DNA of 64,000 nucleotides from Candidatus Bathyarchaeota archaeon (GCA_026014815.1 JAOZHP010000110.1:1047-65046), one strand, 5' to 3'; numbered from the stretch's first letter, positions 6,206 to 59,189 are shown. Numbers and translations: made by a program. The notes: generated by a model not told the origin, from the letters alone.

Positions 6206-7036
6206 CTATCTTCTTTCAGCAGCACCCGCTAGATAGATGGCTGCACGCATCGCGTTAATGGCTGTTTTGTAGTCATTGAAATTTCCTTTCATGTTTCTAC
6301 CATCAATTCGCTCGAAGCTGGGCATAAGTGATGCTAAATCACACATTGTGGATGTGTTGAATAGCAACTTGACTTCGACTGGCTCATTTACAACTCTTGG
6401 TTCTGGAAGCGGTTTAGTTAGAGCTTCCTTCACCTTTGCTGTGATAAGTTTAGTGGACTCGTTAGGGTGAAGACATTTCGCGGAGTACCTGCCAACCGCC
6501 CATTTCACAGCGGCCGTAGTTATTCCGGGCACAAATGCGTTTGCTTCAACAGTTGCAGCATAGTCCCCTGCCAAGAACACGGAGGGAACACCATGTACTC
6601 CAGCTGTTCCGCTGTTTAGTCCGAACTCACCGGTCTCCCTGCTGTTGATCCAGATGCCGTCGATCGCTCTGCCACTGATTGTATGACACATGATGCCGTT
6701 AGATGTTCCCTTCATGCTATGGTAACCAACGTACATGGCTGCGTCGAAGGTGTCGTCGATTCCCTCCATCATGGCCCCAGGCTTGGGACTGCCCCTGACA
6801 AGATGAGCTGCCTCATGGACCTCCTCGGGGCGAAGGTTCCTCATGCCACCGTGGGCATCGCTTACAACGATCTCTTTAACTCCAGCATCCAAGGCTCCCT
6901 TGATAGCAGCGTTAAGGTCTCCTGCCATGAGCTTCCGGGCGAAGACGTACTCGCTGTTATTGCGGTCCACTTCGCTCCAGTCAACTATGCCTGAGATGCC
7001 TTCCATGTCGATGGATATGAAAACTCGTTTTACCAT
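6206..7036 (-). CDS. dppA: D-aminopeptidase DppA-like (peptidase M55)
   Basis: 276 aa. N-terminus MVKRVFISIDMEGISG is characteristic of M55/DppA. Confidence 0.7.
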   Translation of the reverse strand: MVKRVFISIDMEGISGIVDWSEVDRNNSEYVFARKLMAGDLNAAIKGALDAGVKEIVVSDAHGGMRNLRPEEVHEAAHLVRGSPKPGAMMEGIDDTFDAAMYVGYHSMKGTSNGIMCHTISGRAIDGIWINSRETGEFGLNSGTAGVHGVPSVFLAGDYAATVEANAFVPGITTAAVKWAVGRYSAKCLHPNESTKLITAKVKEALTKPLPEPRVVNEPVEVKLLFNTSTMCDLASLMPSFERIDGRNMKGNFNDYKTAINAMRAAIYLAGAAERR

Positions 7037-20867: not shown

Positions 20868-21912
20868 ACTTTTTTACTCCGCGTGTGTGTTCAAGCATCG
20901 TTTCCTCGCAGGCAATGTGGCTTGAACAAGTGTCATATGGATACCTTCAACCGGGTTTAAATACGTCACGGTGAACCCCGGGAGGCGCACACGCACCTCG
21001 GTTTAAAATAGTCATATAATTATCAAGTCGTGGCGAATCCGCGCTTCGCGCGCTCATGAATAAAAAGACTGGTTATTTCTATAGAAATGTCTCCGGTTCC
21101 TTCCATGCGCTGTACATTCTATTCAGCCTCTCTGATATCTCAAGTATCCGCGGCCTCCGAACCCAATCCTAGGTCAGTAGACTAGTGGGGTTCAACCTAT
21201 ACCCCCATTTTTTTCTCGTATAATCGCAGTCCCGACTTGATGGAAAACATCCTTCGTTGAGCAGAGCGCGGAACGTCTCCACGTTAACAAATATGGCCAG
21301 ACCTCCACCAATGTACATGAACTCGGAGAGCAAAAAGCAGGGTTCCCGCGTTGAAGCGCTGAGTACCCGTAAAGGGGTAGCTCACTTCGCTGCTCGTTTC
21401 TCTTTACGCTTTTTTCTTTTTTCTTTTCTTTCCTTCTTGGTCAAAGGTTTCTTCTTAGCACTACGCATACCCAATTCAATCGCCTCATACACTGATTGTA
21501 ATTGATGACACATAAGTCTATCAATCGATGATGACGCTCATCGCCTCAGATGGTGTCCAATCATCTTCAGTCTATGATACAATTGTGGTGAAGTGGATAA
21601 AATATTCAATTGAAAAGGATGGTGATATCATCACGAGATATAAATTTCGAACCTCACCTCCAGCACCATGTTTCTGGTGGAAAAGAGACATACTCACCGG
21701 TTAACATACACGTTTTTGTGCTTACTGGACGGCGTTTGTGAGCACATTTTGATCCAAACGGGGATGTTTTATGGCTTCTTTTAGGTAATAAGGCTTGTAT
21801 TTCCCTTTCCTTAGGTACCCCCCCGCCCCCCTGTTAGCGGCTATTCTTGTTTTAGGATAGGAAAGATGGTGATATCCTCTTTTAATCCATAATTTTTGGG
21901 GGTTTAACCAAG

Positions 21913-22458
21913 TTGCTGATTGTATCCTTGACTAATCTATACATTTATTTTCACTTCACCGAAAGTATATGTGGTGTAAAAATGGGTGGAGAAGTGGAGC
22001 ACAGTACTGCTACAAAGGTGTATGCTCTCTATGGTGCACTATTCAAAGAGATTGCTAAAGAACTAGGAGAAGGGAAAGCTCTGACACTCCATAAGAATGC
22101 GCATGAATACATCGGACTGAATACAGGTAAACAAATTCGAGAACAGATGGGCGACATCGATTATGACCTTGAGACCCTCACCAAGATTCTCCAAAAAGGC
22201 AATCAAAGTATAGGCATTGAATGTCAGATGGTCAAAAGTGCTAATTCGCTTTTACTGAGAAACTTGAGGTGCCCAATGTATGATGGTTACCGATTGGGTG
22301 GATTGGATGATAAGCTAGCTGAGATGCTATGTCAGGTTGGGGCACCTGCTAAACTTTGGACCACACTCAAGCAGTTGAATCCTGATATTATTTACAGCCT
22401 GAATCACTATAGAGATGTACCTGACGAGAGATGTGAAGAAGAAGTCAAACTACCATAA
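21913..22458 (+). CDS. Hypothetical protein. True start is probably the internal Met near 21982.
   Basis: ORF track; AT-rich island context. Confidence 0.35.
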   Translation: MLIVSLTNLYIYFHFTESICGVKMGGEVEHSTATKVYALYGALFKEIAKELGEGKALTLHKNAHEYIGLNTGKQIREQMGDIDYDLETLTKILQKGNQSIGIECQMVKSANSLLLRNLRCPMYDGYRLGGLDDKLAEMLCQVGAPAKLWTTLKQLNPDIIYSLNHYRDVPDERCEEEVKLP

Positions 22459-22500
22459 CTCTTTCTTTATCCATAATTTTGTCCACAATTCACTGTAGAT

Positions 22501-22527
22501 CAGCATCTGAGTGGTTTCAAGAAAAAG
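22501..22527. repeat. Repeat family A copy 1 (CAGCATCTGAGTGGTTTCAAGAAAAAG). Lies at the 3' end of a minus-strand gene; the reverse complement carries an oligo-T tract.
   Basis: Near-identical 27-nt core found 4 times: 22501, 23464, 26338 and 26822. Confidence 0.8.
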
Positions 22528-22590
22528 ATAGGAGACTCATTCAACGTATCAATATTAGAACTTTAACGTCAAAGGGCTTCTCAACGAGCA

Positions 22591-23337
22591 TCATTCATCC
22601 CAACTACCACTCAAGAACTCTAACGCTACACGTTTGATCTCTGAAACATATTTTTTTACAATCGAATGACCTGTATTCGGAGCAATCCACAGATACGAAT
22701 CTGGAATATAATTGTACATATTCACAGGAATAGATACAGGAAAGAAACCATCCCTATCACCATGGATTATCAGCGTCTTAGCCGTAATCGTAGAAAGATA
22801 AGGCGGTGTAAAATTCATATCATCGTAGCTATCTTTCATCTCGTAAAATTGATTCCACCACAGTCTAATCTGCTCATCGCCATGAAGGTGGATACTACGG
22901 TAGTAATTCCATTGATCTTCAGTCAAATCATCAATATTTTCTTGAGCCATTAACTCACGACATTCCTTTGGAAAATGTGGAGAGGCAGAGACAAGTATCA
23001 TAGCCTCAACACGCTTGGGCTCCTGAGTTGCCATGTGGATCAAAGTCATACCTCCTGAGCTCCATCCAACGGCTTTGAATCTCTCAATTTTTAAATGGTC
23101 AAGTAAGGCGTAGATGTCGAGTGCCGATTGTCTGTGTGTGAACTTTTTAGACGGGTTAGTTGAACGTCCGTGTCCCCTCATGTCAGGGATGATTAGCTTG
23201 TAACGTTTTTTGAAGTCTGGGATGAATGGGTTCCACATTTGGTTAGACCATGAAAATCCATGTAGGAGCACAAGCGGTTCACCTTCTCCATGAACTTCAA
23301 AGTACATCTCTATGTCGTTGACCTTAGCCAGAGGCAT
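22591..23337 (-). CDS. Alpha/beta-hydrolase fold protein
   Basis: HGFSWSNQMW and GWSSGG nucleophile-elbow motifs. Confidence 0.75.
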   Translation of the reverse strand: MPLAKVNDIEMYFEVHGEGEPLVLLHGFSWSNQMWNPFIPDFKKRYKLIIPDMRGHGRSTNPSKKFTHRQSALDIYALLDHLKIERFKAVGWSSGGMTLIHMATQEPKRVEAMILVSASPHFPKECRELMAQENIDDLTEDQWNYYRSIHLHGDEQIRLWWNQFYEMKDSYDDMNFTPPYLSTITAKTLIIHGDRDGFFPVSIPVNMYNYIPDSYLWIAPNTGHSIVKKYVSEIKRVALEFLSGSWDE

Positions 23338-23463
23338 CTATTCATCCCTCCAATGAAATTCAGAACTCATCCAAGAATGGTTGAAGACGATTTAACGGTT
23401 TAGAGGGAAGAACACTCAGAACTCAAGACCTGACTGCCCCATACTCTTTTCTTCACTAGAAAC

Positions 23464-23491
23464 AGCATCTGAGTGGTTTCAAGAAAAAAGA
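23464..23491. repeat. Repeat family A copy 2
   Basis: Same core as 22501-22527. Confidence 0.8.
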
Positions 23492-23519
23492 TGGAGAATA
23501 GCTAGGGCTCTCGACTGCT

Positions 23520-23990
23520 TCATTCCTGTAACTGCTGTACCGCCATATCGGGATTGTAGAAGATCTTGAAGACCTTAACCTTCCCATCCTTGAAATCCAC
23601 GATCCAAACCGCCACCATTTCAACCCTCTTCCCAGTCGCAGGAATCCCGGCAACGTCCTCACCAGTATGAACACCAGTCCAGTGAACCTCCGCTACAACC
23701 GTATCACCCTTGGAGATCATGCGATCCACCCGATAGACGCCATCAGACCATATCGAGAAACTTCCCTCGAACAACTCACGTAATCCCTTTTTGTCCCGTT
23801 TCTCTCCTCCAACCGTTTGAACAGTCACATCATCGGTGAAGTACTCCAGCATCTCGTCAAGTTTACGAAGATCTATCAATTCCACAATCTTGCCGATGAT
23901 CTTCTCGTTCTCACTCTCAGTCAATTCTTCATCACTCTTCCCATTCTTGTTGGTATTTGTATAGCCCCCCACCTCGGGGCTAGGTTCCAC
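23520..23990 (-). CDS. SnoaL-like/ester-cyclase (NTF2-fold) protein. The N-terminal 25 codons are encoded by repeat B, so the true start is uncertain.
   Basis: NTF2-like pattern IGKIVELIDLRKLDEMLEYFTDDVTVQ. Confidence 0.55.
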   Translation of the reverse strand: MEPSPEVGGYTNTNKNGKSDEELTESENEKIIGKIVELIDLRKLDEMLEYFTDDVTVQTVGGEKRDKKGLRELFEGSFSIWSDGVYRVDRMISKGDTVVAEVHWTGVHTGEDVAGIPATGKRVEMVAVWIVDFKDGKVKVFKIFYNPDMAVQQLQE

Positions 23991-24048
23991 CAGTTAGCCA
24001 GTGGAACCTTGAATTTCATCTGATCCTAAGAATCTATAATGTTTTGGA
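23957..24048. repeat. Repeat family B copy 1. Contains an 8-bp inverted repeat, GGTTCCAC(N10)GTGGAACC, and lies at the 5' end of a minus-strand gene.
   Basis: Shared 70-90-nt element at 23957, 26226 and 26605, with compensatory variation in the stem. Confidence 0.75.
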
Positions 24049-24164
24049 TAGTTTATCTGTTCTGCGTGGTTTCGATGAAAACCGCCACTTTTCTCGCTGA
24101 GGGCGGGGAGCTCCGAGAAGTGTAGAAAAAGAAGGGAAAAAAGAGCATTGGTTGAGGGTTTAAG

Positions 24165-24974
24165 CTATTTTTTAGATTTCAACCTTGTATTTGATAATGA
24201 ATATAAACTGTTTTTGGTCTCTTTCAGGATTTCTAAGTCTAAATCCATTAGAAATGTGTCACAATCTGCCTTTGTTAATCTGCTTAACCCAATTGCTCTT
24301 GCCCAGTCAATACATTGATCAACTAACGAAGAAAGTTCCTCTCTTTCCTGTTTTATCCTCTCAAGATATTGATTTTCTAATCTCAATTGCATTTTTTCAA
24401 GAATGTCTCTTTCCGTATCTGCTAGCAAGTCTAGTTCATATTCAGATGTAAACCTACGAACATCAACAAGTCGTGCTTTATCCAGACCTCTTTCGAATAG
24501 CCAGTCACCAAATCTATCAACATAAGACGGTAACTCTGCTCGTTCTAGTTCCATTCGTGTCTGCCTTTCTTGTTCTCGTTCTTTTTCCTGCTCCATCGAG
24601 AACAGTGCCCTAGCTTTGCTAATTTTCATCTCGATTTCAAAAGGTAGTCCGAACCTTTCATCGAGTCCTTTTGATCGTAAAAACAAGTCAAACATATTAT
24701 AGGACGGTTGAATTTCTGGGTCTGGAAACTCAGTTTGTATGAAAGTTACATACTCAGAAGCTAAGTCTTGAGGGGAGATCGTCTTAAGATAATCTGGGAC
24801 TTCTCTAGGCGATATTTCAGGATAATATTCTATTTGCCCTGATTCAATATCTTCCTCTGAAGGGATAGCCGTTTGAATTTTTTGTAGAAAATTTACGACC
24901 ATGCAGTTTTCATCGAGCCACATAACACATTGATTGCCTTTACATTCTTCTTTATAGAAGGGACAAAAACTCAC
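24165..24974 (-). CDS. Hypothetical protein with an N-terminal Cys4 zinc-finger-like motif (CPFYKEECKGNQCVMWLDENC), an acidic and coiled-coil middle, and a C-terminal coiled coil. Downstream partner of the nuclease gene.
   Basis: ORF track. Overlaps the upstream gene by 4 nt (ATGA), consistent with an operon. Confidence 0.55.
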   Translation of the reverse strand: MSFCPFYKEECKGNQCVMWLDENCMVVNFLQKIQTAIPSEEDIESGQIEYYPEISPREVPDYLKTISPQDLASEYVTFIQTEFPDPEIQPSYNMFDLFLRSKGLDERFGLPFEIEMKISKARALFSMEQEKEREQERQTRMELERAELPSYVDRFGDWLFERGLDKARLVDVRRFTSEYELDLLADTERDILEKMQLRLENQYLERIKQEREELSSLVDQCIDWARAIGLSRLTKADCDTFLMDLDLEILKETKNSLYSLSNTRLKSKK

Positions 24975-25885
24975 TTTTCTGACACCCTCCCAAGTTCTTC
25001 AAAAGCATTCTCAATCTGAGCAGAAAGTTTTCTCTTGTATTCTTTGACAACAGAGGTTATCTTATCAATGTCTCGAATATTGCGAGTTTTCAGGCTTTCA
25101 GCGGTATTATTTATTGTATCAAGTGATTTGCTGAGTGTTTGAATTTCAGTAATAATATCGTTAACTTTTGTGAGTGTTTTACTCAAATCCTCAGTTGGCT
25201 GATCCTGTATCTTGAGAGTTTCCAACTCGATGAGTTTCTTAACAATATAGAAGGCAAACAAGTGACCAGAATGGTTTAACTCGCTCTCCACCACGAAAAC
25301 TGCGGTTCGGTCCAAGTTATGTTTTAAATTAATGCAACTTGAACACTTGGAAATTCTCGAACGAAGAGATACAAAGATTCCATATTTTGTGTCTCTAACT
25401 TCCATATCTCTCCAGAACTTGTCTACTTGTGAGGTAGGGACTATACCCGTGTAGTCTTTTACTTCAATTAGAACAGGCGTGCTAGAACTGGCGACAGTAG
25501 CTAGAATGTCTGAGTGTCTACCGATTCCTGAAACATCCTCGAAAGAATCATCCATAAAATGTTCTTCAAAACTTTTGAAAACAGCTTCCTCAGTAAATTC
25601 TCCTCGTTTTGCTGGGGTCATTACTGTTGGAACAATGTGCTTTAGTTGTTCTCTAATCGTATTGATGTCTTGTCTGAGTGGTGAAAAGAATGCTTCTACT
25701 GATTCTTTACTAGTACTAATTGAAGCATGTGTAACGACCATATCGCCAAGAATAATATATTTTTCAATTATACTGTCTCGCTGTTCTTCTGGAATAGTTT
25801 CAACAATTTTAATCGCTGTTGGGTCGGTCAATGTAAGCTCAAGTTTTACTTCGTTTTGGGGTTGGTTGAGAATCATTAGTTTCAA
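24971..25885 (-). CDS. PD-(D/E)xK (Mrr/Hjc-like restriction-endonuclease fold) nuclease-domain protein with a C-terminal coiled coil
   Basis: Pattern GEFTEEAV...SDILATV...PVLIEVKDY fits E...D...ExK spacing. Residues about 200-304 are heptad-rich. Confidence 0.55.
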   Translation of the reverse strand: MKLMILNQPQNEVKLELTLTDPTAIKIVETIPEEQRDSIIEKYIILGDMVVTHASISTSKESVEAFFSPLRQDINTIREQLKHIVPTVMTPAKRGEFTEEAVFKSFEEHFMDDSFEDVSGIGRHSDILATVASSSTPVLIEVKDYTGIVPTSQVDKFWRDMEVRDTKYGIFVSLRSRISKCSSCINLKHNLDRTAVFVVESELNHSGHLFAFYIVKKLIELETLKIQDQPTEDLSKTLTKVNDIITEIQTLSKSLDTINNTAESLKTRNIRDIDKITSVVKEYKRKLSAQIENAFEELGRVSEK

Positions 25886-26225
25886 TCAAGAAGTGTAACT
25901 ATTTATTGTTTTTGAAACATCCCCCCACGGGTCGGGGCACCCTATGAATTTTCAAGATAGGGGTATGCCTTCTAGGATGCTGTGCCCCAAGTTACAATGT
26001 TACCCTCCTTAGAGGGGTTCATTAGATAGGGTAGCGTCCTTGGGCGCTGTGCTTTGTAGACTCAGTTTTGCCGTCTTCAGACGGTCACATTAAATCAGCT
26101 GAAGGGGTACCAAGAAGAGGAAAAAATTTTAAATATGTAGGGCTGTTCTGTGTGACGTTACAAATTAGCTACCACGTCTAAAAATTAGCTAATTAGATAA
26201 TCGACTAATACCCCTTTCTTAGTTC

Positions 26226-26310
26226 TCCCCACTTTGGAGCTAGGGCTCCACCAGTTAGCCAGTAGAACCTTGAGTGACATCTTATCCTTTACGTCTATAA
26301 CGTTTTGGAC
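26226..26310. repeat. Repeat family B copy 2
   Basis: Homologous to 23957-24048, including the TCTATAAYGTTTTGGA tail. Confidence 0.75.
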
Positions 26311-26337
26311 GTTCAAAGATGAATTCAAACTAGAAAA

Positions 26338-26363
26338 AGCATCTGAGTGGACTCAAGAAAAAG
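26338..26363. repeat. Repeat family A copy 3 (variant GGACTC for GGTTTC)
   Basis: Same core. Confidence 0.75.
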
Positions 26364-26396
26364 AGGGGGAATCAGCTAGTTCGGTTTTTCGGATGA

Positions 26397-26579
26397 CTAC
26401 TCGTCTTTAAAAGCAGCTTTAACTTTCGCTACCAGTTCGGGCGTGAGTTCAATCTCTGGATGTACGTTTTTTGCGTGTTCAGCAATAAGTTCCATGAGAC
26501 CTTCCTCGGTTTCGCTAGAGGCTGACCAATCACAGTCCACACCTACATCTCTACAAGCATATGTTTTTACCATCTTCAT
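26397..26579 (-). CDS. DUF1059-like small metal-binding protein
   Basis: 60 aa; MKMVKTYACRDVGVDCDWSASSETEEGLMELIAEHAKNVH matches the DUF1059 signature. Confidence 0.6.
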   Translation of the reverse strand: MKMVKTYACRDVGVDCDWSASSETEEGLMELIAEHAKNVHPEIELTPELVAKVKAAFKDE

Positions 26580-26604
26580 TTCTCCTTGTTCTTTCTTTCA
26601 CTTC

Positions 26605-26672
26605 TTGGTAATTGTATAGCTCCCAACTCCGGAGCTAGGACTCCACCAGCTAACCAGCAGAACCTTGAGTGT
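26605..26672. repeat. Repeat family B copy 3 (acts as the 5' leader of the DUF1059 gene)
   Basis: Homologous to the other B copies. An in-frame TGA upstream of the ATG shows it is untranslated here. Confidence 0.7.
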
Positions 26673-26821
26673 CAATAGACTCAAATAATATTTAACAACT
26701 TGTAAAGGATTTAATGATTTTATTTTCTTATTGTATATAATATTCGTGAAATCCAGCGTTTTGATAACGAGCTTCGACAATATTCAAATAACTATCTCCT
26801 CGACTTTTATCCTACTAAATT

Positions 26822-26850
26822 CAGCATCTGAGTGGTTTCAAGAAAAAAAG
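26822..26850. repeat. Repeat family A copy 4, followed by a tRNA T-arm-like fragment (GGGAGGGACTCGAACCC, 26850-26867)
   Basis: Same core. The adjacent segment is the reverse complement of a GGGTTCGAGTCCC T-arm. Confidence 0.7.
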
Positions 26851-26932
26851 GGAGGGACTCGAACCCTACTATATGTGGTGATATCACCCGATATCTCCTT
26901 TTTTTATATATCGTATGTAGGACCATGAAGAA

Positions 26933-26993
26933 TTTTTTATCTCAATATGACAAATTACTTGAAGCCAAAAAAAATATGGTGCAGGGGGTGGGA
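26933..26993. repeat. Distal att-like direct repeat: a copy of the 3' end of tRNA-Leu(CAG) plus about 40 nt of its 3' flank
   Basis: TTTTTATCTCAATATGACAAATTACTTGAAGCCAAAAAAAATATGGTGCAGGGGGTGGGA here, against TTTTTTCTCAATATTACAGGTTACTTGAAGCGAAAATAATGGTGCGGAGGGTGGGA at 29545-29605. Confidence 0.7.
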
Positions 26994-27034
26994 TGCCCAC
27001 ACAAAAATACTAGTAAAAACCGTGTGTGAGCATA

Positions 27035-27568
27035 TTATAATGGGAAGAGTTCTCTTTCTAATTCGTTCATCTTCTCCCTGAATCGCACATTAAAATCGCT
27101 AACCAATTCGAGATACGTCGCAAACCACGCCTCAAATACTATAACAACTTCATGAAGCCGCTTTGCCTCGTCACTATTTTTTTCTTCATCAGAGAGATTG
27201 TTCCACTCATCAAGAATTGATTCAATAACATCTAGCTTGCCAGTGACAAATCGTTCAGATATGTCTACGGTCCTCTTGAATTCGTCAAAGAAGGATTTTG
27301 CTCGTTCACCATACAACTGGGTACGGGAGCCTGGTTTAGACTCTTTTCTGATCAAGCCCCGTTGCTCTAAATTTGATAAATACCTTGATATTTGTGATCT
27401 TGAGTATCCGGTTTTTTCTGAGATCTTTTCTTGAGTAAGTGGTTCAGGAGATAATACGATCATAGAGTAGATACAGGCTATCGTTGGCTCGGTTCCCCTG
27501 AATCTGACTATGTCCTCAAGAACCCCTAGGAACGCCTCATGTAGTTTTTCGTACCCGTTGTTTGTCAT
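27035..27568 (-). CDS. Winged-helix (MarR/TrmB-like) transcriptional regulator
   Basis: HTH segment ISEKTGYSRSQISRYLSNLEQRGLIRK. Confidence 0.6.
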   Translation of the reverse strand: MTNNGYEKLHEAFLGVLEDIVRFRGTEPTIACIYSMIVLSPEPLTQEKISEKTGYSRSQISRYLSNLEQRGLIRKESKPGSRTQLYGERAKSFFDEFKRTVDISERFVTGKLDVIESILDEWNNLSDEEKNSDEAKRLHEVVIVFEAWFATYLELVSDFNVRFREKMNELERELFPL

Positions 27569-27682
27569 TGTTATCTTCTCTTATTGTTTTATAGAAAGTT
27601 CCATAGTGCTACACTAGAAAAGTGAGGATATTATAGTTACTTTCTCTACCATATATAATGTAAAACCTATTTGAAAGCTTTG

Positions 27683-28606
27683 TTATTCTTTCTTTAATTC
27701 TTTTCTCTCTATTTTATTTAATATAACGCCACATGATTTACACTTATAATCAACATCATAAACCTTCGAAACTACATCATTACTTTCATCTTCTTTAATT
27801 AATTTTGATTCAAAATATTCCAAAGACCCAATATTATTACAAACCTCACATCTAGTTCTTTCACTTATTTCTAATATAGACAATGGAATTAACCCCAAAA
27901 TAATTGATATACCCAAATATGTAGGATATCCTGTTAATATATCTCTATTGAAATAAATGGCATAAAAAATAGGGGTTTCAAATAATACAAATAAAACCAC
28001 CATTATAATTTTTTCTTTTATTAGCGGAGTTGTTTGATTATCATATACATATTGTGAATATTTTTCAATTAAACTACTCACAACATTAAACCATGAAGAC
28101 CCCTGCGGAAATTCATCTATTGATAGTGGCGAATTTGAAGTAATATCCTGAATAAATGTAACTTTTGATACCATATCAAACCATTGATCTCTGTGTTTTT
28201 TTAATTCTGAAGGAGTGTATTTTCTTCCTTTGGGATGATTTGGGTTATATGAACCCACATCGGCATGACAATCAAAACAGAGAGGAATCCCATTATCCTC
28301 ATCGTTTCCTCCATCAGGTTCTATATGATGAATTTCGATTTTTGTACCCTTGAAAGTTCTACAAAGACAACAACGCCTATTACTTTTTACTAATAAAGAT
28401 TCAGCTACAATTGGTGGAAATGGTTTAGGAGGCATTGAAATTACCTTTAATTTTAGTATTATTTTAGGGTTGTTAAGAATTTGGACAGATTTTGTAAGGA
28501 CCATTGCCCCCCCCGCTAATTTCTTCGGGTGAAACTCAGAAGGTGGGGGGGCTGCGAAATTAATTATACTTGTATGTGTAACTGAAAGTGATATTGATGG
28601 AGCCAA
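27683..28606 (-). CDS. HNH endonuclease domain fused to two TM helices and a C-terminal zinc ribbon. True start is probably the Met near 28435.
   Basis: HNH motif CCLCRTF...IEIHHIEPDGGNDEDNGIPLCFDCH. Hydrophobic helices IIMVVLFVLF and GISIILGLIPL. C-terminal CEVCN...CKSCG. Confidence 0.55.
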   Translation of the reverse strand: MAPSISLSVTHTSIINFAAPPPSEFHPKKLAGGAMVLTKSVQILNNPKIILKLKVISMPPKPFPPIVAESLLVKSNRRCCLCRTFKGTKIEIHHIEPDGGNDEDNGIPLCFDCHADVGSYNPNHPKGRKYTPSELKKHRDQWFDMVSKVTFIQDITSNSPLSIDEFPQGSSWFNVVSSLIEKYSQYVYDNQTTPLIKEKIIMVVLFVLFETPIFYAIYFNRDILTGYPTYLGISIILGLIPLSILEISERTRCEVCNNIGSLEYFESKLIKEDESNDVVSKVYDVDYKCKSCGVILNKIERKELKKE

Positions 28607-28896
28607 ATCTAAGAGGGAGAGTCGAAGCGTTTCTTGATAGATTATTAACTGATGAAATATTTTCTAATGTAATGCGAGGAATTACTACACTTAAAAACGA
28701 GTGGATGTTTGAGTCAATTGATAGCTTCTATTTAGGAGTAATATTCGGATTAACAACAGAATATATCTTACGTGATTATTCTGACCAAGGAAAAGATATC
28801 GAAGACTGGGAGAAGTTATCAAATGAAACAGTCTCTGTTCTTACTAGAAGATTATCAGAGATTAGAAGACAATTCGAACTACACATCAATAAGTAA
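28588..28896 (+). CDS. Hypothetical protein
   Basis: ORF track only. Confidence 0.3.
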   Translation: MILMEPNLRGRVEAFLDRLLTDEIFSNVMRGITTLKNEWMFESIDSFYLGVIFGLTTEYILRDYSDQGKDIEDWEKLSNETVSVLTRRLSEIRRQFELHINK

Positions 28897-29009
28897 TAAT
28901 AACACCATACTTTAACATCCAAAGCCAACATTCAATTATTTTTTAAATCTGGCAAACCCTCTTAGAAGTTTTACATAAAAAGTTTTACGAAATAAATTCT
29001 ATGAATAAA

Positions 29010-29294
29010 TTATTTGATTTTAACATTTTTCATGTTTCTCAGTTCATCAGCAAATCCATCTATTTGTTCAATTATCTTCTCAATATATTCTCTGATGTAA
29101 TCTATTCCCTGAATAGGCGGAAGTTCATCAACTGTCTCGATTGTAAACGAAAACTTCCCTGACTCAATGAGAGCGTCAATCTCAGCAGCTCTTTCTGGAT
29201 CAATATACGTTAGTTCATCATAAGCTAATTTAAGTGATTCAAGAGAAATATCTACTAACCTAGATAATCTCTCAATCAAATGGTTCTCAGTCAT
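29010..29294 (-). CDS. Hypothetical acidic protein
   Basis: ORF track only. Confidence 0.3.
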   Translation of the reverse strand: MTENHLIERLSRLVDISLESLKLAYDELTYIDPERAAEIDALIESGKFSFTIETVDELPPIQGIDYIREYIEKIIEQIDGFADELRNMKNVKIK

Positions 29295-29544
29295 CTCATT
29301 TCCTCTTTCTAACTATCTTGCAATCAGCATAGTCTGATACATATTCATATCTTTTACTTAATGCATTTATGTAATCATTCAAATCGTATATACCTTAACC
29401 AGATAATTATCATCAGGCTCCTCATCCAATAAATGAATGTAAACTATAGTATTTTGGGTATTGACATGTTAACCTACTATTTCGCTACCAGAGAACGGGT
29501 AGCTCTTTTTTTTCAAGATTCCCAGATACAAAGTACAAAAAATA

Positions 29545-29605
29545 TTTTTTTCTCAATATTACAGGTTACTTGAAGCGAAAATAATGGTGCGGAGGGTGGG
29601 ACTCG
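29545..29605. repeat. Proximal att-like direct repeat (the 3' end of tRNA-Leu plus its flank)
   Basis: See 26933-26993. Confidence 0.7.
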
Positions 29606-29670
29606 AACCCACGAAGGACTAGTCCATCAGGACCTGAACCTGACCCCTTTGACCACTTGGGAACCCCCGC
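29585..29670 (-). tRNA. tRNA-Leu (anticodon CAG), encoded CCA, long variable arm
   Basis: Hand-folded cloverleaf GCGGGGG/CCUCCGC acceptor, anticodon loop UUCAGGU, variable stem GGAC/GUCC, T-arm GUGGGUUCGAGUCCCAC. Confidence 0.9.
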
Positions 29671-29687
29671 AACGAAAAATAATGTGA

Positions 29688-30104
29688 TTAGAGAGTCGCC
29701 ATAAACTCCTTGTACGCAGCGGCATCCATCAGGTTACCAAGATCCGCGTCCAAGCTACTAGGCTCAACCTTAACGATCCAGCCCTCACCGTAAGGATCAT
29801 TATTAATCTTCTCGGGGCTGTCCAGCAGGCTCTCATTCACCTCAACCACCTTGCCAGCCACAGGGCTGTAAAGATCACTGACGGCTTTAACGGACTCCAC
29901 GGCTCCCAGGGCCTCGCCCTGACCTACCTCGGCGTCCATATCGGGTAGCTCAACGTACACTATCTCATGGAGCTGTCCCTGAGCGTAGTCATCGATACCA
30001 ATCAAGACCATGCCACCGTCTACCTTCGCCCACTCATGCTCCTTAGTGTAGTAGAACCCTTCCTCAACTTTGTACTCGTCGGTCATTTCTTTTCCCTCTT
30101 CCAA
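29688..30104 (-). CDS. gcvH: Glycine cleavage system H protein
   Basis: Lipoyl-lysine motif ESVKAVSD. Confidence 0.9.
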   Translation of the reverse strand: MEEGKEMTDEYKVEEGFYYTKEHEWAKVDGGMVLIGIDDYAQGQLHEIVYVELPDMDAEVGQGEALGAVESVKAVSDLYSPVAGKVVEVNESLLDSPEKINNDPYGEGWIVKVEPSSLDADLGNLMDAAAYKEFMATL

Positions 30105-32977: not shown

Positions 32978-33094
32978 TGGTCCCGCCCGCAGGAGTTGAA
33001 CCTGCAACCCTCCGGTGTCTGCTCATGGTCTGATTGCCACTGCCCCGCGGGGCGATGACTACAGCCGGATGCTCTGCCATTGAGCTAGGGCGGG
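32978..33094 (-). tRNA. tRNA-Tyr (anticodon GUA) with a 42-nt intron after position 37, a C1-G72 pair, and encoded CCA
   Basis: Hand fold: acceptor CCCGCCC/GGGCGGG, D-arm GCUCAAUGGCAGAGC, anticodon stem UCCGG/CCGGA, loop CUGUAG[intron]A, T-arm GCAGGUUCAACUCCUGC, discriminator A. Confidence 0.8.
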
Positions 33095-58820: not shown

Positions 58821-58891
58821 CCTCCTGGGGTGTAATGGTAGCACAACTGGCCGTGGACCAGTTAGAGTGGGTTCGATCCCCACCAATTTGA
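58821..58891 (+). tRNA. tRNA-like gene 1. D-arm GUGU/GCAC, anticodon stem ACUGG/CCAGU with loop CCGUGGA (GUG, His-like), T-arm GUGGGUUCGAUCCCCAC. The acceptor stem was not closed by hand folding.
   Basis: Canonical GGTTCGATCC T-loop and cloverleaf arms read directly from the sequence. Confidence 0.35.
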
Positions 58892-58962
58892 GCAGTGATA
58901 GCTTAATGGGAAAGCGCCGAGTTGAGTTCTCGGTGTCGGGGGTTCGATTCCCCCTCACTTTT
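58892..58962 (+). tRNA. tRNA-like gene 2. Acceptor GCAGUGA/UCACUUU with one mismatch, D-arm GCUU/AAGC, anticodon stem CCGAG/CUCGG with loop UUGAGUU (GAG), T-arm GGGGGUUCGAUUCCCCC.
   Basis: Hand fold. The anticodon and variable-arm type are inconsistent (GAG reads Leu but the variable arm is short), so identity is unresolved. Confidence 0.35.
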
Positions 58963-59189
58963 ACCTACAAAATGTTGCTCTCGAAACCTTTTTTATTACC
59001 ATTATTATAAAATAAATTGGTTCATGGAAGGCGGGTTAATCCCTTAATTCGCTGAAATTGAGCCAAGGTGGCCAACGTGGGTTGGTTTCCTCCTGCCTAT
59101 ATGTGCCGAAAGGAGCTTATGGGGGCTGGTGGGCTTGGGCTCATCGGCTGGGGGTGTGGACGTGGGTTCACACAGATCCCCCAGAAAAT

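Follow-up and report, generated by a model that had tools for sequence, protein, structure and literature searches.

The window, a 64-kb stretch of DNA from a Candidatus Bathyarchaeota archaeon, contained two repeat families, A and B, confined to a low-GC stretch at approximately 21000–29600. The elements of both families shared a single orientation throughout and were interleaved with minus-strand genes to form an array, and the GC content of the array region was 33–46% (vs. ~50%). The A core was found on the plus strand at 22501, 23463, 26337 and 26822 with 0–3 mismatches, and family B was found at approximately 23941–24055, 26207–26318 and 26597–26711; no chance matches were expected for either repeat (for the A core, 100 shuffles). 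The first-pass annotation of this region had reported four copies of A and three copies of B. The repeats were real and all of these copies were recovered, together with a fifth, degenerate copy of A, and six details of the description were corrected.

At the low-coordinate end of the array, A1′ (22454–22535, minus strand; core 22501–22527) was a long form: besides the oligo-T tract and CTTGAAACCACTCAGATGCTGAT, it held a purine-rich distal arm. The element was located between the 3′ end of an alpha/beta hydrolase cassette gene (22591–23337, minus strand, 248 aa) and a convergent, ATC_hydrolase-like gene on the plus strand (21913–22458), the stop codon of which abutted the distal end of A1′; elsewhere (L129), the ATC_hydrolase-like family is itself a cassette gene flanked by B′ and A′. 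The alpha/beta hydrolase gene lacked a B and was preceded by a TATA-like region of its own. The next element, A2′ (23424–23497, minus strand; core 23463–23489), was a long form with an imperfect palindrome of the X1 class, and it was followed by a SnoaL-like cassette gene (23520–23924, minus strand, probably 134 aa) and by B1′ (23941–24055, minus strand), which carried a TATA-like box, hairpin 1 (GGTTCCACTGG/CTGGTGGAACC), hairpin 2 (AGCCCC/GGGGCT) and then UACAAAUACCAA. The fifth, degenerate A′ (TTTTCATCGAAACCACGCAGAAC; 24055–24085, minus strand) was fused directly to B1′, a junction of the same class as those at L014:5047 and L023:11.

Of the two proteins encoded by a two-gene cassette (24165–25885, minus strand), one (304 aa) gave a weak Mrr_cat-like match and the other (269 aa) was of unknown function. 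Beyond this cassette, B2′ (26207–26318, minus strand) retained its promoter part and hairpin 1 intact, while its hairpin 2 and leader were decayed, and some 320 nt of non-coding DNA followed. The short-form A3′ (26329–26370, minus strand; core 26337–26363, 3 mismatches) ran straight into B2′. A DUF1059 gene (26397–26579, minus strand, 60 aa) occupied a B′-gene-A′ cassette, with a B3′ (26597–26711, minus strand) that carried an alternative promoter part (GTTAAATAT) in common with L080. The first array element on the gene strand was the long-form A4′ (26790–26856, minus strand; core 26822–26848). Copies of A had been said to lie always just 3′ of a minus-strand gene; A4′ departed from this rule, adjoining a tRNA-like remnant (26836–26906, minus strand) and not a protein gene. 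The remnant, the scores of which were not significant, comprised an acceptor-like stem (AAAAAAAGG/CCTTTTTTT), a GATATC hairpin and a T-arm (AGGGTTCGAGTCCCT), and its 3′ strand was the T-run of A4′.

On the gene strand, B consisted of a TATA-like box, TCAAGG, two hairpins, UAYAAGUACCAAGA, a Shine–Dalgarno sequence (SD) and a start codon located about 15 nt after B. Including the second hairpin, the element measured about 115 nt, much longer than originally described, and the conserved motif reported after the inverted repeat, GCTATACAA, was present as the 3′ arm of this second hairpin plus the bases that follow. B2′ lacked this 3′ module (no GCTATACAA) and was about 320 nt away from the next gene, an exception to the placement of B at the 5′ end of a cassette gene. 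Across 76 unique B copies, a TATA-like A/T peak was located at −29 to −22 from TCAAGG, with an A/T fraction of 0.87–0.95, whichever of several promoter sequence families the copies carried; a TATA-like octamer at a fixed upstream distance is the arrangement of archaeal promoters, in which BRE/TATA precedes the transcription start by about 26 nt. The BRE/TATA-like box was often preceded by a GGAC.GTCC palindrome. As read from its sequence, B is a putative promoter joined to a structured 5′ leader, with a predicted transcription start.

In the leader stems, 96.1% of cells were paired, compared with 32–57% when the 3′ partners were slid, and the pair types in hairpin 2 were UA (63), CG (11), GC (4) and UG (2). 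Hairpin 1 folded at −11.5 kcal/mol in the sense and −6.5 kcal/mol in the antisense direction, the sense fold being the better one in 68/76 copies; G·U accounted for 20% of its pairs, and its z-score averaged −3.4. Pairing was kept up through one-sided, G·U-rich changes and through UA/CG/GC covariation, as expected of a structured 5′ leader RNA, the pairs of which hold on the transcribed strand alone. This covariation together with the strand-specific G·U pairing indicates that the B hairpins behave as RNA. True covariation was seen only in the wider data set; within the window, the compensatory changes claimed for the inverted repeat turned out to be one-sided, with G·U kept on the minus strand only. 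The claim that B is translated as an N-terminal extension in one cassette was also set aside, as the GTG-started open reading frame through B1′ was an ORF-calling artefact. The SnoaL-like gene most likely starts at TTG 23924, in agreement with a homologous cassette that also begins MTESENE, and B would therefore be 5′ UTR in every case.

In the proposed mechanism, the box at −29 to −22 would act as an archaeal promoter for a transcribed leader of about 75–110 nt. A variable-length 5′-terminal hairpin would come first, then a conserved hairpin whose loop shows an SD-like GAGGUG, and then UAYAAGUACCAAGA, the real SD and, about 15 nt on, the start codon. Stability of the mRNA, its translation or both are most likely under the control of the leader. 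Like the cis-regulatory 5′ UTR RNAs catalogued in Rfam (riboswitch candidates, leaders and RNA thermometers), B has a covarying conserved structure with a variable-length stem directly upstream of the SD and start codon, and its hairpin 2 holds an anti-SD-like CUCC and an SD-like GGAG/GAGGUG. Unlike those RNAs, it serves genes with no common pathway, it travels in the company of a promoter and a 3′ element that are both conserved, and it matches no family in Rfam 15: only tRNAs reached the gathering score in the window, and an E-value scan of 21000–30000 yielded nothing for A or B. B represents a new, conserved candidate promoter-plus-leader motif of archaea with clear RNA covariation, and it precedes more than 100 small genes whose function is unknown.

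Family A consisted of an oligo-T tract and CTTGAAACCACTCAGATGCTGAT, often extended into an imperfect palindrome. The terminator-like character first ascribed to the tract held on the gene strand, where the tract shortly followed the stop codon, as does the run of at least five T in archaeal oligo-T terminators; termination itself is a prediction. This T-run was the best-conserved part of A outside the search anchor. The median gap from stop codon to A was 26 nt, with most copies 15–40 nt after protein-gene stops, and 79/86 A copies lay within 80 nt of a same-strand stop codon, compared with 27% of random positions. The random scatter expected of a dispersed MITE was therefore not observed. The A core was nearly invariant and ended at a sharp 3′ boundary, beyond which several discrete sequence classes were found. 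In the long form, the imperfect palindrome had a z-score of −2.3 with little strand asymmetry, and its right arm was missing in about a third of A copies.

A may be pictured as a 3′ module in which an oligo-T termination signal, about 26 nt past the stop codon, would be followed by the invariant CTTGAAACCACTCAGATGCTGAT. Because the long-form palindrome puts a T-rich tract on both strands, it could be a bidirectional terminator for convergent genes. The conservation of the 23-nt core in more than 100 copies exceeds the apparent need of a terminator alone, which suggests an added function, either as a protein or recombinase site or as an RNA processing signal. This conserved terminator-palindrome element is also new.

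Bathyarchaeia are among the most abundant uncultured archaea of sediments, and, to our knowledge, almost nothing is known about their gene regulation and accessory-gene exchange. Family A was detected in 14 metagenome-assembled genome (MAG) loci labelled Bathyarchaeia or Thermoplasmata (the latter by label only, four loci), and family B in at least 120 metagenome contigs. Profile searches turned up A 112 times and B 180 times, the two sharing one orientation. The two elements flanked approximately 130 small unrelated genes on at least 120 contigs, singly or in arrays, and arrays like that of the window were present in L014, L093, L111, L052, L054 and L108. The flanked genes had a median length of 101 aa and belonged to diverse families, including DUF3303, SnoaL, GYD and DUF1059. 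No viral or plasmid matches for A or B were found. B and A were linked across a gene in 47/97 and 51/84 cases, and A was followed by B in 30/96 and B preceded by A in 28/154, figures that carry an ascertainment bias because the loci were retrieved by A or B searches. The stronger linkage across the gene indicates that the cassette unit is gene-centred. These comparative data support the organisation originally proposed, in which a shared module is reused around unrelated genes, and not simple gene duplication.

The DUF1059 B′-gene-A′ cassette of the window recurred in L126, L069, L080 and L097 at 85–94% identity, and these five contexts, the window included, had different neighbours. A breakpoint between L111 and L093 was located at the edge of the A core. 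Loci of two strains, L117 and L133, that were 99.7% identical differed by one gene, and this difference was bounded by a 21-nt repeat module. The boundary of the L117/L133 indel was an X-type module, not the A core, and the event could be a simple deletion between repeats.

The explanation that we favour, with slightly better than even confidence, is that these units are self-contained single-gene expression cassettes built from portable regulatory modules. The in silico evidence lends good support to an expression role for A and B. Because the modules share high nucleotide identity around many unrelated small accessory genes of Bathyarchaeia, they would also be portable stretches of homology or possible recombinase sites, and they may have a role in recombination. 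The modules would be the points at which cassettes enter, leave and change places, which would produce arrays like the one beside tRNA-Leu in the window. Putative mobile promoters, reportedly described in 2012 by Nijveen, Matus-Garcia and colleagues, are said to be homologous promoter regions before non-homologous prokaryotic genes. B resembles them as a highly similar promoter segment before unrelated genes, within and between genomes, and differs from them in that it is archaeal, occurs in arrays and is coupled to a structured leader and a matching 3′ module. The data point to an undescribed, non-integron kind of gene cassette, a new architecture that, like an integron, bears the marks of single-gene units that are modular and shuffled. 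The A and B sequence models can be used for the annotation of MAGs, and the modules offer ready-made candidate expression parts (promoter, leader and terminator) for Bathyarchaeia, a lineage for which we know of no genetic tools.

More tentatively, and with a low probability, the cassettes could form a hitherto undescribed archaeal system analogous to integrons but expression-ready, each gene moving with its promoter, leader and terminator. In such a system, a putative recombinase would excise and insert genes at the A core, the invariant sequence of which would fold into an imperfect palindrome bearing bulged bases. If so, small accessory genes would spread among Bathyarchaeia and into Thermoplasmata. 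The A/B cassettes are a directly testable candidate for a new route of archaeal gene mobility or recombination.

A site-specific, integron-like system, in which the A core or the A-plus-B junction is the site of a recombinase encoded elsewhere and this distant enzyme excises and inserts B-gene-A cassettes, appears doubtful. The near-invariant core, its sharp 3′ boundary, the discrete classes beyond and the occurrence of the elements under two phylum labels are in keeping with it. In long A, a first stem leads through a 5-nt bulge to another, which has one extra-helical C and is closed by a loop, a fold that recalls the attC layout of R-box, spacer and L-box. As in integrons, the genes are short, mostly of the same orientation, unrelated and largely uncharacterised (DinB, SnoaL, polyketide-cyclase-like and DUF families), each is bounded by a conserved repeat whose dyad symmetry is imperfect, and one cassette occurs in different arrays. 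CALINs are by definition clusters of attC sites without an integrase, and the VCRs of Vibrio are the homogeneous repeats of chromosomal integrons.

However, the repeats lack the R″/R′ cores (RYYYAAC...GTTRRRY) of attC. Pairs of these cores 40–150 nt apart were found twice in 21000–30000 (21190–21262 and 23064–23165), and none was in A or B. Among the window's listed ORFs, taken without a Pfam scan, none of integrase size attracted attention. No integrase or transposase was recurrent among 148 neighbouring ORF families, of which the 25 commonest Pfam families included no recombinase, and none was linked to the A/B elements; no circular or empty-site junction at the A core was observed directly. 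Two distinct modules are present instead of a single attC, and every B-led cassette comes with a TATA-like box of its own, set at a constant distance, and with a structured 5′ leader, unlike promoterless integron cassettes that depend on a common Pc promoter. The B hairpins act as sense-strand RNA, the right palindrome arm is not universal, and many cassettes are solitary and dispersed, with many A copies standing as lone gene ends among ordinary metabolic genes. Archaeal integrons have likewise been found in Bathyarchaeia and Thermoplasmatota, the two phylum labels under which the A/B elements occur; their published attC sites are canonical (xxCTAAC...GTTAGxx), and the A core is absent from the supplement of that study (Ghaly et al. 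2022, PMC9668308).

We judged it unlikely that the cassettes are an immobile regulon, with B as a riboswitch-like or protein-bound cis-regulatory 5′ UTR RNA, A as the common terminator or 3′ UTR element of co-regulated small stress proteins, and module similarity kept by selection and gene conversion. Sense-strand RNA structure with covariation, recurring small-protein families among the genes served, and dispersal among normal genes with no mobility genes nearby would all fit. Selection poorly explains, however, why the nucleotide sequence is nearly the same from promoter through spacer and leader to terminator when the genes are unrelated and the phylum labels differ. The reuse of the DUF1059 cassette, the low-GC, strain-variable, tRNA-adjacent position of the window array and the module-bounded indel between near-identical strains also argue against it.

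It is highly improbable that the spacer from A to B, with TTCTTGAAAC...GTACCAAGAA as weak terminal inverted repeats, is a MITE-like mobile unit that enters intergenic DNA and supplies a terminator and a promoter there. Contiguous A-B units of 130–230 nt do exist (window 26207–26370, L014:5036–5182 and L069), and their two ends, read directly from the sequences, are alike at 8/10 bases as inverted repeats. This likeness is weak, though, no target-site duplications were seen, the stretch from the A core to B varies greatly, with several classes, A-B adjacency is less frequent than linkage across the gene, and placement relative to gene ends is non-random.

The array adjoins tRNA-Leu(CAG) (29585–29670, minus strand) and a diverged duplicate of its last ~25 nt plus ~50 nt of downstream flank (26934–26998, minus strand). 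Least probable of all is that small elements integrated repeatedly at a tRNA or tRNA-like gene and left the repeats behind as att sites, with A as the duplicated att core (tRNA 3′ end plus downstream flank) and B as a conserved element arm. The T-arm and acceptor-like remnant beside A4′, the RATTCCCCCATC-like bases before many A copies that recall a T-loop and T-stem, and an integrase fragment beside the same tRNA-Leu in one relative favour it, but the tRNA-like match, at 20 bits vs. a gathering score of 40, is not significant, the A core bears no relation to the tRNA-Leu 3′ end, tRNA genes occur in only L006 and L014 of the 14 MAG loci scanned and neither adjoins an A copy, most A copies follow protein genes, and the 0.4–1 kb cassettes, like the window array as a whole, contain no integrase. 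Tycheposon-type islands are an example of tRNA-adjacent genomic islands and tandem integrative elements. The window resembles these in its low-GC, strain-variable array immediately downstream of a tRNA with a 3′-end duplicate and in the relative's integrase, and differs in that A/B is not a tRNA att repeat and its integrase-free cassettes are widespread away from tRNAs. The 3′-end duplicate itself was located outside the A/B array and, together with tRNA-Leu, bracketed a 2.6-kb insert of 33% GC. In related Bathyarchaeia, the order gcvT-gcvH-tRNA-Leu was shared and the region downstream of tRNA-Leu was variable.

The A and B repeats of the window are real, and with somewhat better than even confidence we read them as the two ends of portable, self-expressing cassettes, each with a 5' promoter and structured leader (B), a 3' terminator palindrome (A) and exchange by shuffling at the shared modules. 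Four copies of the 27-nt family A core lie on the plus strand at 22501, 23463, 26337 and 26822 with 0-3 mismatches, while none is expected by chance in dinucleotide-preserving shuffles. The three family B copies span about 23941-24055, 26207-26318 (B2, its 3' part lost) and 26597-26711. The first-pass annotation had counted four A and three B copies, which was borne out, but its A count was incomplete, with a fifth, degenerate A at about 24055-24085; a profile search of the 64-kb window found no further copies. The repeats are confined to a stretch of 33-46% GC (about 21000-29600) in a genome of about 50% GC, the low-GC stretch ending at tRNA-Leu(CAG) (29585-29670, minus strand). Every gene between the repeats is on the minus strand, and the genes are mutually unrelated: they encode an alpha/beta hydrolase, a SnoaL-like protein, an unknown and a weakly Mrr-like protein, and a DUF1059 protein. 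Defence-system models gave generic wHTH matches only among the island proteins. That A always follows a minus-strand gene held for most copies, the exception being A4, which is preceded by a tRNA-like remnant and no protein gene. The N-terminal extension that B1 had been thought to encode is an ORF-calling artefact: TTG 23924 is the most likely start of the SnoaL-like gene, in line with a homologous cassette that likewise begins MTESENE.

Read on the minus (gene) strand, as A' and B', the order from 5' to 3' is A', B', gene. B' is about 115 nt long. At its 5' end lies a short palindrome (at its best TTTTGGAC.GTCCAAAA), and next are a tract rich in A and a TATA-like box (CGTTATAGAC, GTTAAATA or ATAAATAG). 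TCAAGG, some 27 nt past the box, opens hairpin 1; 3' of it come hairpin 2 (AGCYCC-GAGGUGG-GGRGCU), UAYAAGUACCAAGA and a purine-rich SD, with the start codon about 15 nt past the B' end. In 76 unique B copies, the A/T fraction reached 0.87-0.95 at -29 to -22 from TCAAGG, and this peak held across several different promoter sequence families. The peak has the geometry of a predicted archaeal TATA box; with the transcription start so placed, transcription would begin about TCAAGG and hairpin 1 would form the 5' end of the mRNA.

Standard pairs filled 96.1% of the pair cells in 28 aligned leaders, compared with 32-57% when the 3' partners were slid. Helix 1 varied in these leaders chiefly by U·A, U·G and C·G exchanges, and the sole free pair of helix 2 was UA 63, CG 11, GC 4 and UG 2 times among 83 leaders. 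Within the window copies, the compensatory changes claimed earlier were not seen: differences in the inverted repeat are one-sided, with G·U pairs kept on the minus strand only. The length of hairpin 1 varies between 17 and over 40 nt, yet the hairpin is closed in 62 of the 76 copies; G·U accounts for 20% of its pairs and its mean z-score is -3.4. Its fold energy is -11.5 kcal/mol in sense against -6.5 in antisense, sense giving the better fold in 68 of the 76. The B hairpins behave as coding-strand RNA. The loop of hairpin 2, GAGGUG, is SD-like and CUCC lies within its 5' arm; ribosome recruitment or SD masking would be a plausible role, as would protection of the mRNA 5' end by hairpin 1. 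No Rfam family matched the B leader, and known RNA families were rejected for A and B alike, neither having an Rfam match. Half-copies of B are present in L054, L074 and L133, three of the loci retrieved from MAGs and metagenomes (e.g. L054:1602-1648 and 6773-6819), so B is itself modular: larger genes of 153-906 aa are preceded by the 5' promoter part alone, and other genes by the 3' hairpin-2/leader part alone. Between B2 and the Mrr-like gene, ~320 nt of non-coding sequence (25886-26206) contain several GC-rich hairpins and, on the plus strand at ~26108-26121, GTACCAAGAAGAGG, which is like the inverted 3' end of the B leader. This interval was rejected as an ncRNA, its fold z-score being about -1 on both strands with no Rfam match.

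A' comprises a C-rich patch, a T-run and then CTTGAAACCACTCAGATGCTGAT, and in its long form continues as TCTAGTGAAGAAAAGAGTATGGGG (the X part), an imperfect reverse complement of the left half. Upstream sequence was long enough in 86 A copies, and in 79 of these a same-strand ORF (50 codons or more) ended no more than 80 nt upstream, compared with 27% of random positions, and the median gap from stop codon to A was 26 nt. The T-run is the best-conserved portion of A outside the search anchor and would fit an archaeal oligo-T terminator, as expected. A alone was rejected as a stable RNA hairpin, its consensus fold being no better than that of shuffles (z-score -0.06); the fold of an imperfect palindrome is reached by the long X1 class alone, with a mean z-score of about -2.3 and little strand asymmetry. 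Long A fits a putative bidirectional terminator, given its frequent position between convergent genes, such as A1' and the plus-strand gene 21913-22458 of the window. In 26 loci the convergent gene encodes a predicted membrane protein of 170-200 aa, from one recurrent family without a Pfam match (e.g. L113:1162-1761, L014:3292-3825, L111:9-542 and L133:2491-3024), and its stop codon lies right against the distal palindrome arm of A.

The X arm of A is split between AAGAAAAGAG and TATGGGG by the same ~26-nt A/T-rich insert, TAAATCTATTTATAAAATATTAAGAG, with a TATA-like box, in two unrelated loci (L097:~380-450, and the minus strand of L007 downstream of an A copy at 365-416). Pairing of the A core with the 5' part of B as inverted repeats (about 13/17 bases) was judged too weak. 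The ~1 kb separating the TBP gene from the island (20900-21900) has no convincing gene, contains C-runs and may be decayed cassette debris; short motifs occur there in two diverged copies and again at the distal end of A1 (21877-21896 vs 22461-22480).

With each species represented by a single genome, an exact-pattern scan placed the A core in 15 loci, just 3' of a gene in 14 of them; by MAG label, ten are Bathyarchaeia, four Thermoplasmata and one Peribacteria. The Peribacteria match (L009), a bare 23 nt in a coding region, was taken as chance, and the four Thermoplasmata-labelled loci carry no housekeeping gene, their phylum being that of the MAG label. A Black Sea Bathyarchaeota contig (L014) carries a like interleaved array of four B' and four A' with genes of 78-126 aa, one end of which adjoins tRNA-Val. 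A degenerate hairpin-2 pattern was found in at least 120 metagenome contigs, mostly from marine and estuarine sediments. Across all 136 sequences, profile searches gave counts of 112 for A' and 180 for B', the two being co-oriented; L093, L111, L052, L054, L108 and L113 carry long arrays. A full-text literature search by core sequence strings returned no paper.

The complete genes led by B (n=130, median 101 aa) fall into many unrelated families, including DUF3303, SnoaL/DUF4440, GYD, DUF1059, ATC_hydrolase, SCO4226-like, DinB_2, polyketide-cyclase-like, ydhR and DUF3795. Across the gene, 47 of 97 B' had an A' after them and 51 of 84 A' had a B' before them. This linkage is stronger than the adjacency of A' to the next B' (A' then B' in 30/96; B' preceded by A' in 28/154). 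Unrelated small genes within shared B/A modules, linked across the gene, support the proposal of the first-pass annotation that such modules are reused in a cassette organisation distinct from gene duplication. Four other loci, L126, L069, L080 and L097, carry the window's DUF1059 cassette (B3'-gene-A3') at 85-94% identity, with different neighbours on both sides. Past ...CAGATGCTGAT, sequences continue in several discrete classes, either the X arm or one of several B' promoter variants, and the breakpoint at which L111 and L093 diverge separates the A core from the X part. L117 and L133, 99.7% identical, differ by a 646-nt single-gene segment (L117:2613-3258 vs L133:3529-3556) flanked by a 21-nt direct repeat, GTGAGRATAAAATCATCGATT, which is an X-type module directly 5' of the B' start; the segment's gene is antisense and, judged by eye, peptidase-E-like. 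Judged by sequence comparison, these loci show cassettes reshuffled at shared modules, and homologous recombination or a dedicated enzyme would both fit.

At a rather low probability, the A core could be the target of a dedicated recombination system. The near-invariance of CTTGAAACCACTCAGATGCTGAT would seem to exceed the apparent need of a terminator; in a search for a recombinase by association, ordinary metabolic and transport families were seen among the 148 neighbouring ORF clusters. The main conservative rival, a purely static regulon in which genes share the B and A modules and stay in place, seems improbable beside the differing contexts of the DUF1059 cassette. In behaviour, the closest analogue of the shuffled cassettes is the integron cassette array or CALIN, a cluster of attC recombination sites lacking the integrase. 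Integron arrays and CALINs have been reported in Archaea, Bathyarchaeia included, with canonical attCs (PMC9668308), and the A core is absent from the supplement of that study. Integron membership fails on each defining feature: the A/B repeats have no RYYYAAC/GTTRRRY cores and differ from the published archaeal attCs, no integron integrase (IntI) was noticed in the window ORF list or recurred among the commonest Pfam families near the elements, and, unlike in an integron, each cassette has its own promoter-like box. An intergenic MITE was not supported, since A is tied to gene ends, the scatter unrelated to them expected of a MITE was not seen, and the stronger linkage across the gene argues against it. 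Viral origin was not supported, IMG/VR scans with the A and B patterns giving no match, nor was plasmid origin, PLSDB having no match to the A3-B2 unit.

Proteins named Candidatus Bathyarchaeota match the window's GcvT at 81% identity, which marks this DNA as bathyarchaeial. Related Bathyarchaeia (GcvT 78-81% identity) all have gcvT-gcvH-tRNA-Leu(CAG) followed by differing genes. One related contig (L136) stops exactly at the tRNA; in another, a Phage_integrase-domain fragment (L140:11221-11598) lies directly downstream of the orthologous tRNA, where the contig ends. In the window, the last ~25 nt of tRNA-Leu(CAG) with ~50 nt of downstream flank form a diverged direct repeat (26934-26998 vs 29545-29610) bracketing a 2.6 kb, 33%-GC insert (within 26934-29670). 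The insert, which encodes a wHTH regulator (27035-27568), an HNH-like protein of 307 aa (27683-28606) and small ORFs, looks like the remnant of a tRNA-integrated element whose integrase is gone. The A/B array begins just past the 26934-26998 copy, at the tRNA-like remnant (26836-26906, minus strand), which has an acceptor-like stem of 9 bp, all A/T, then a hairpin of perfect GATATC and a T-arm bearing TTCGAGT; the T-run of A4' doubles as the 3' strand of the acceptor-like stem. ARAGORN made no call for the remnant and Rfam scores were under thresholds, with weak matches to the Tymo_tRNA-like and mascRNA models. This neighbourhood places the array in a classical tRNA-adjacent variable region; A is distinct from the tRNA-Leu att repeat, and its identity as a tRNA att repeat was not supported. 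Elsewhere in the window, Rfam detected a 114-nt tRNA (32981-33094, minus strand), presumably intron-containing and missed by ARAGORN, and a partial tRNA-like match (58826-58885, plus strand) directly upstream of the tRNA at 58891-58965.
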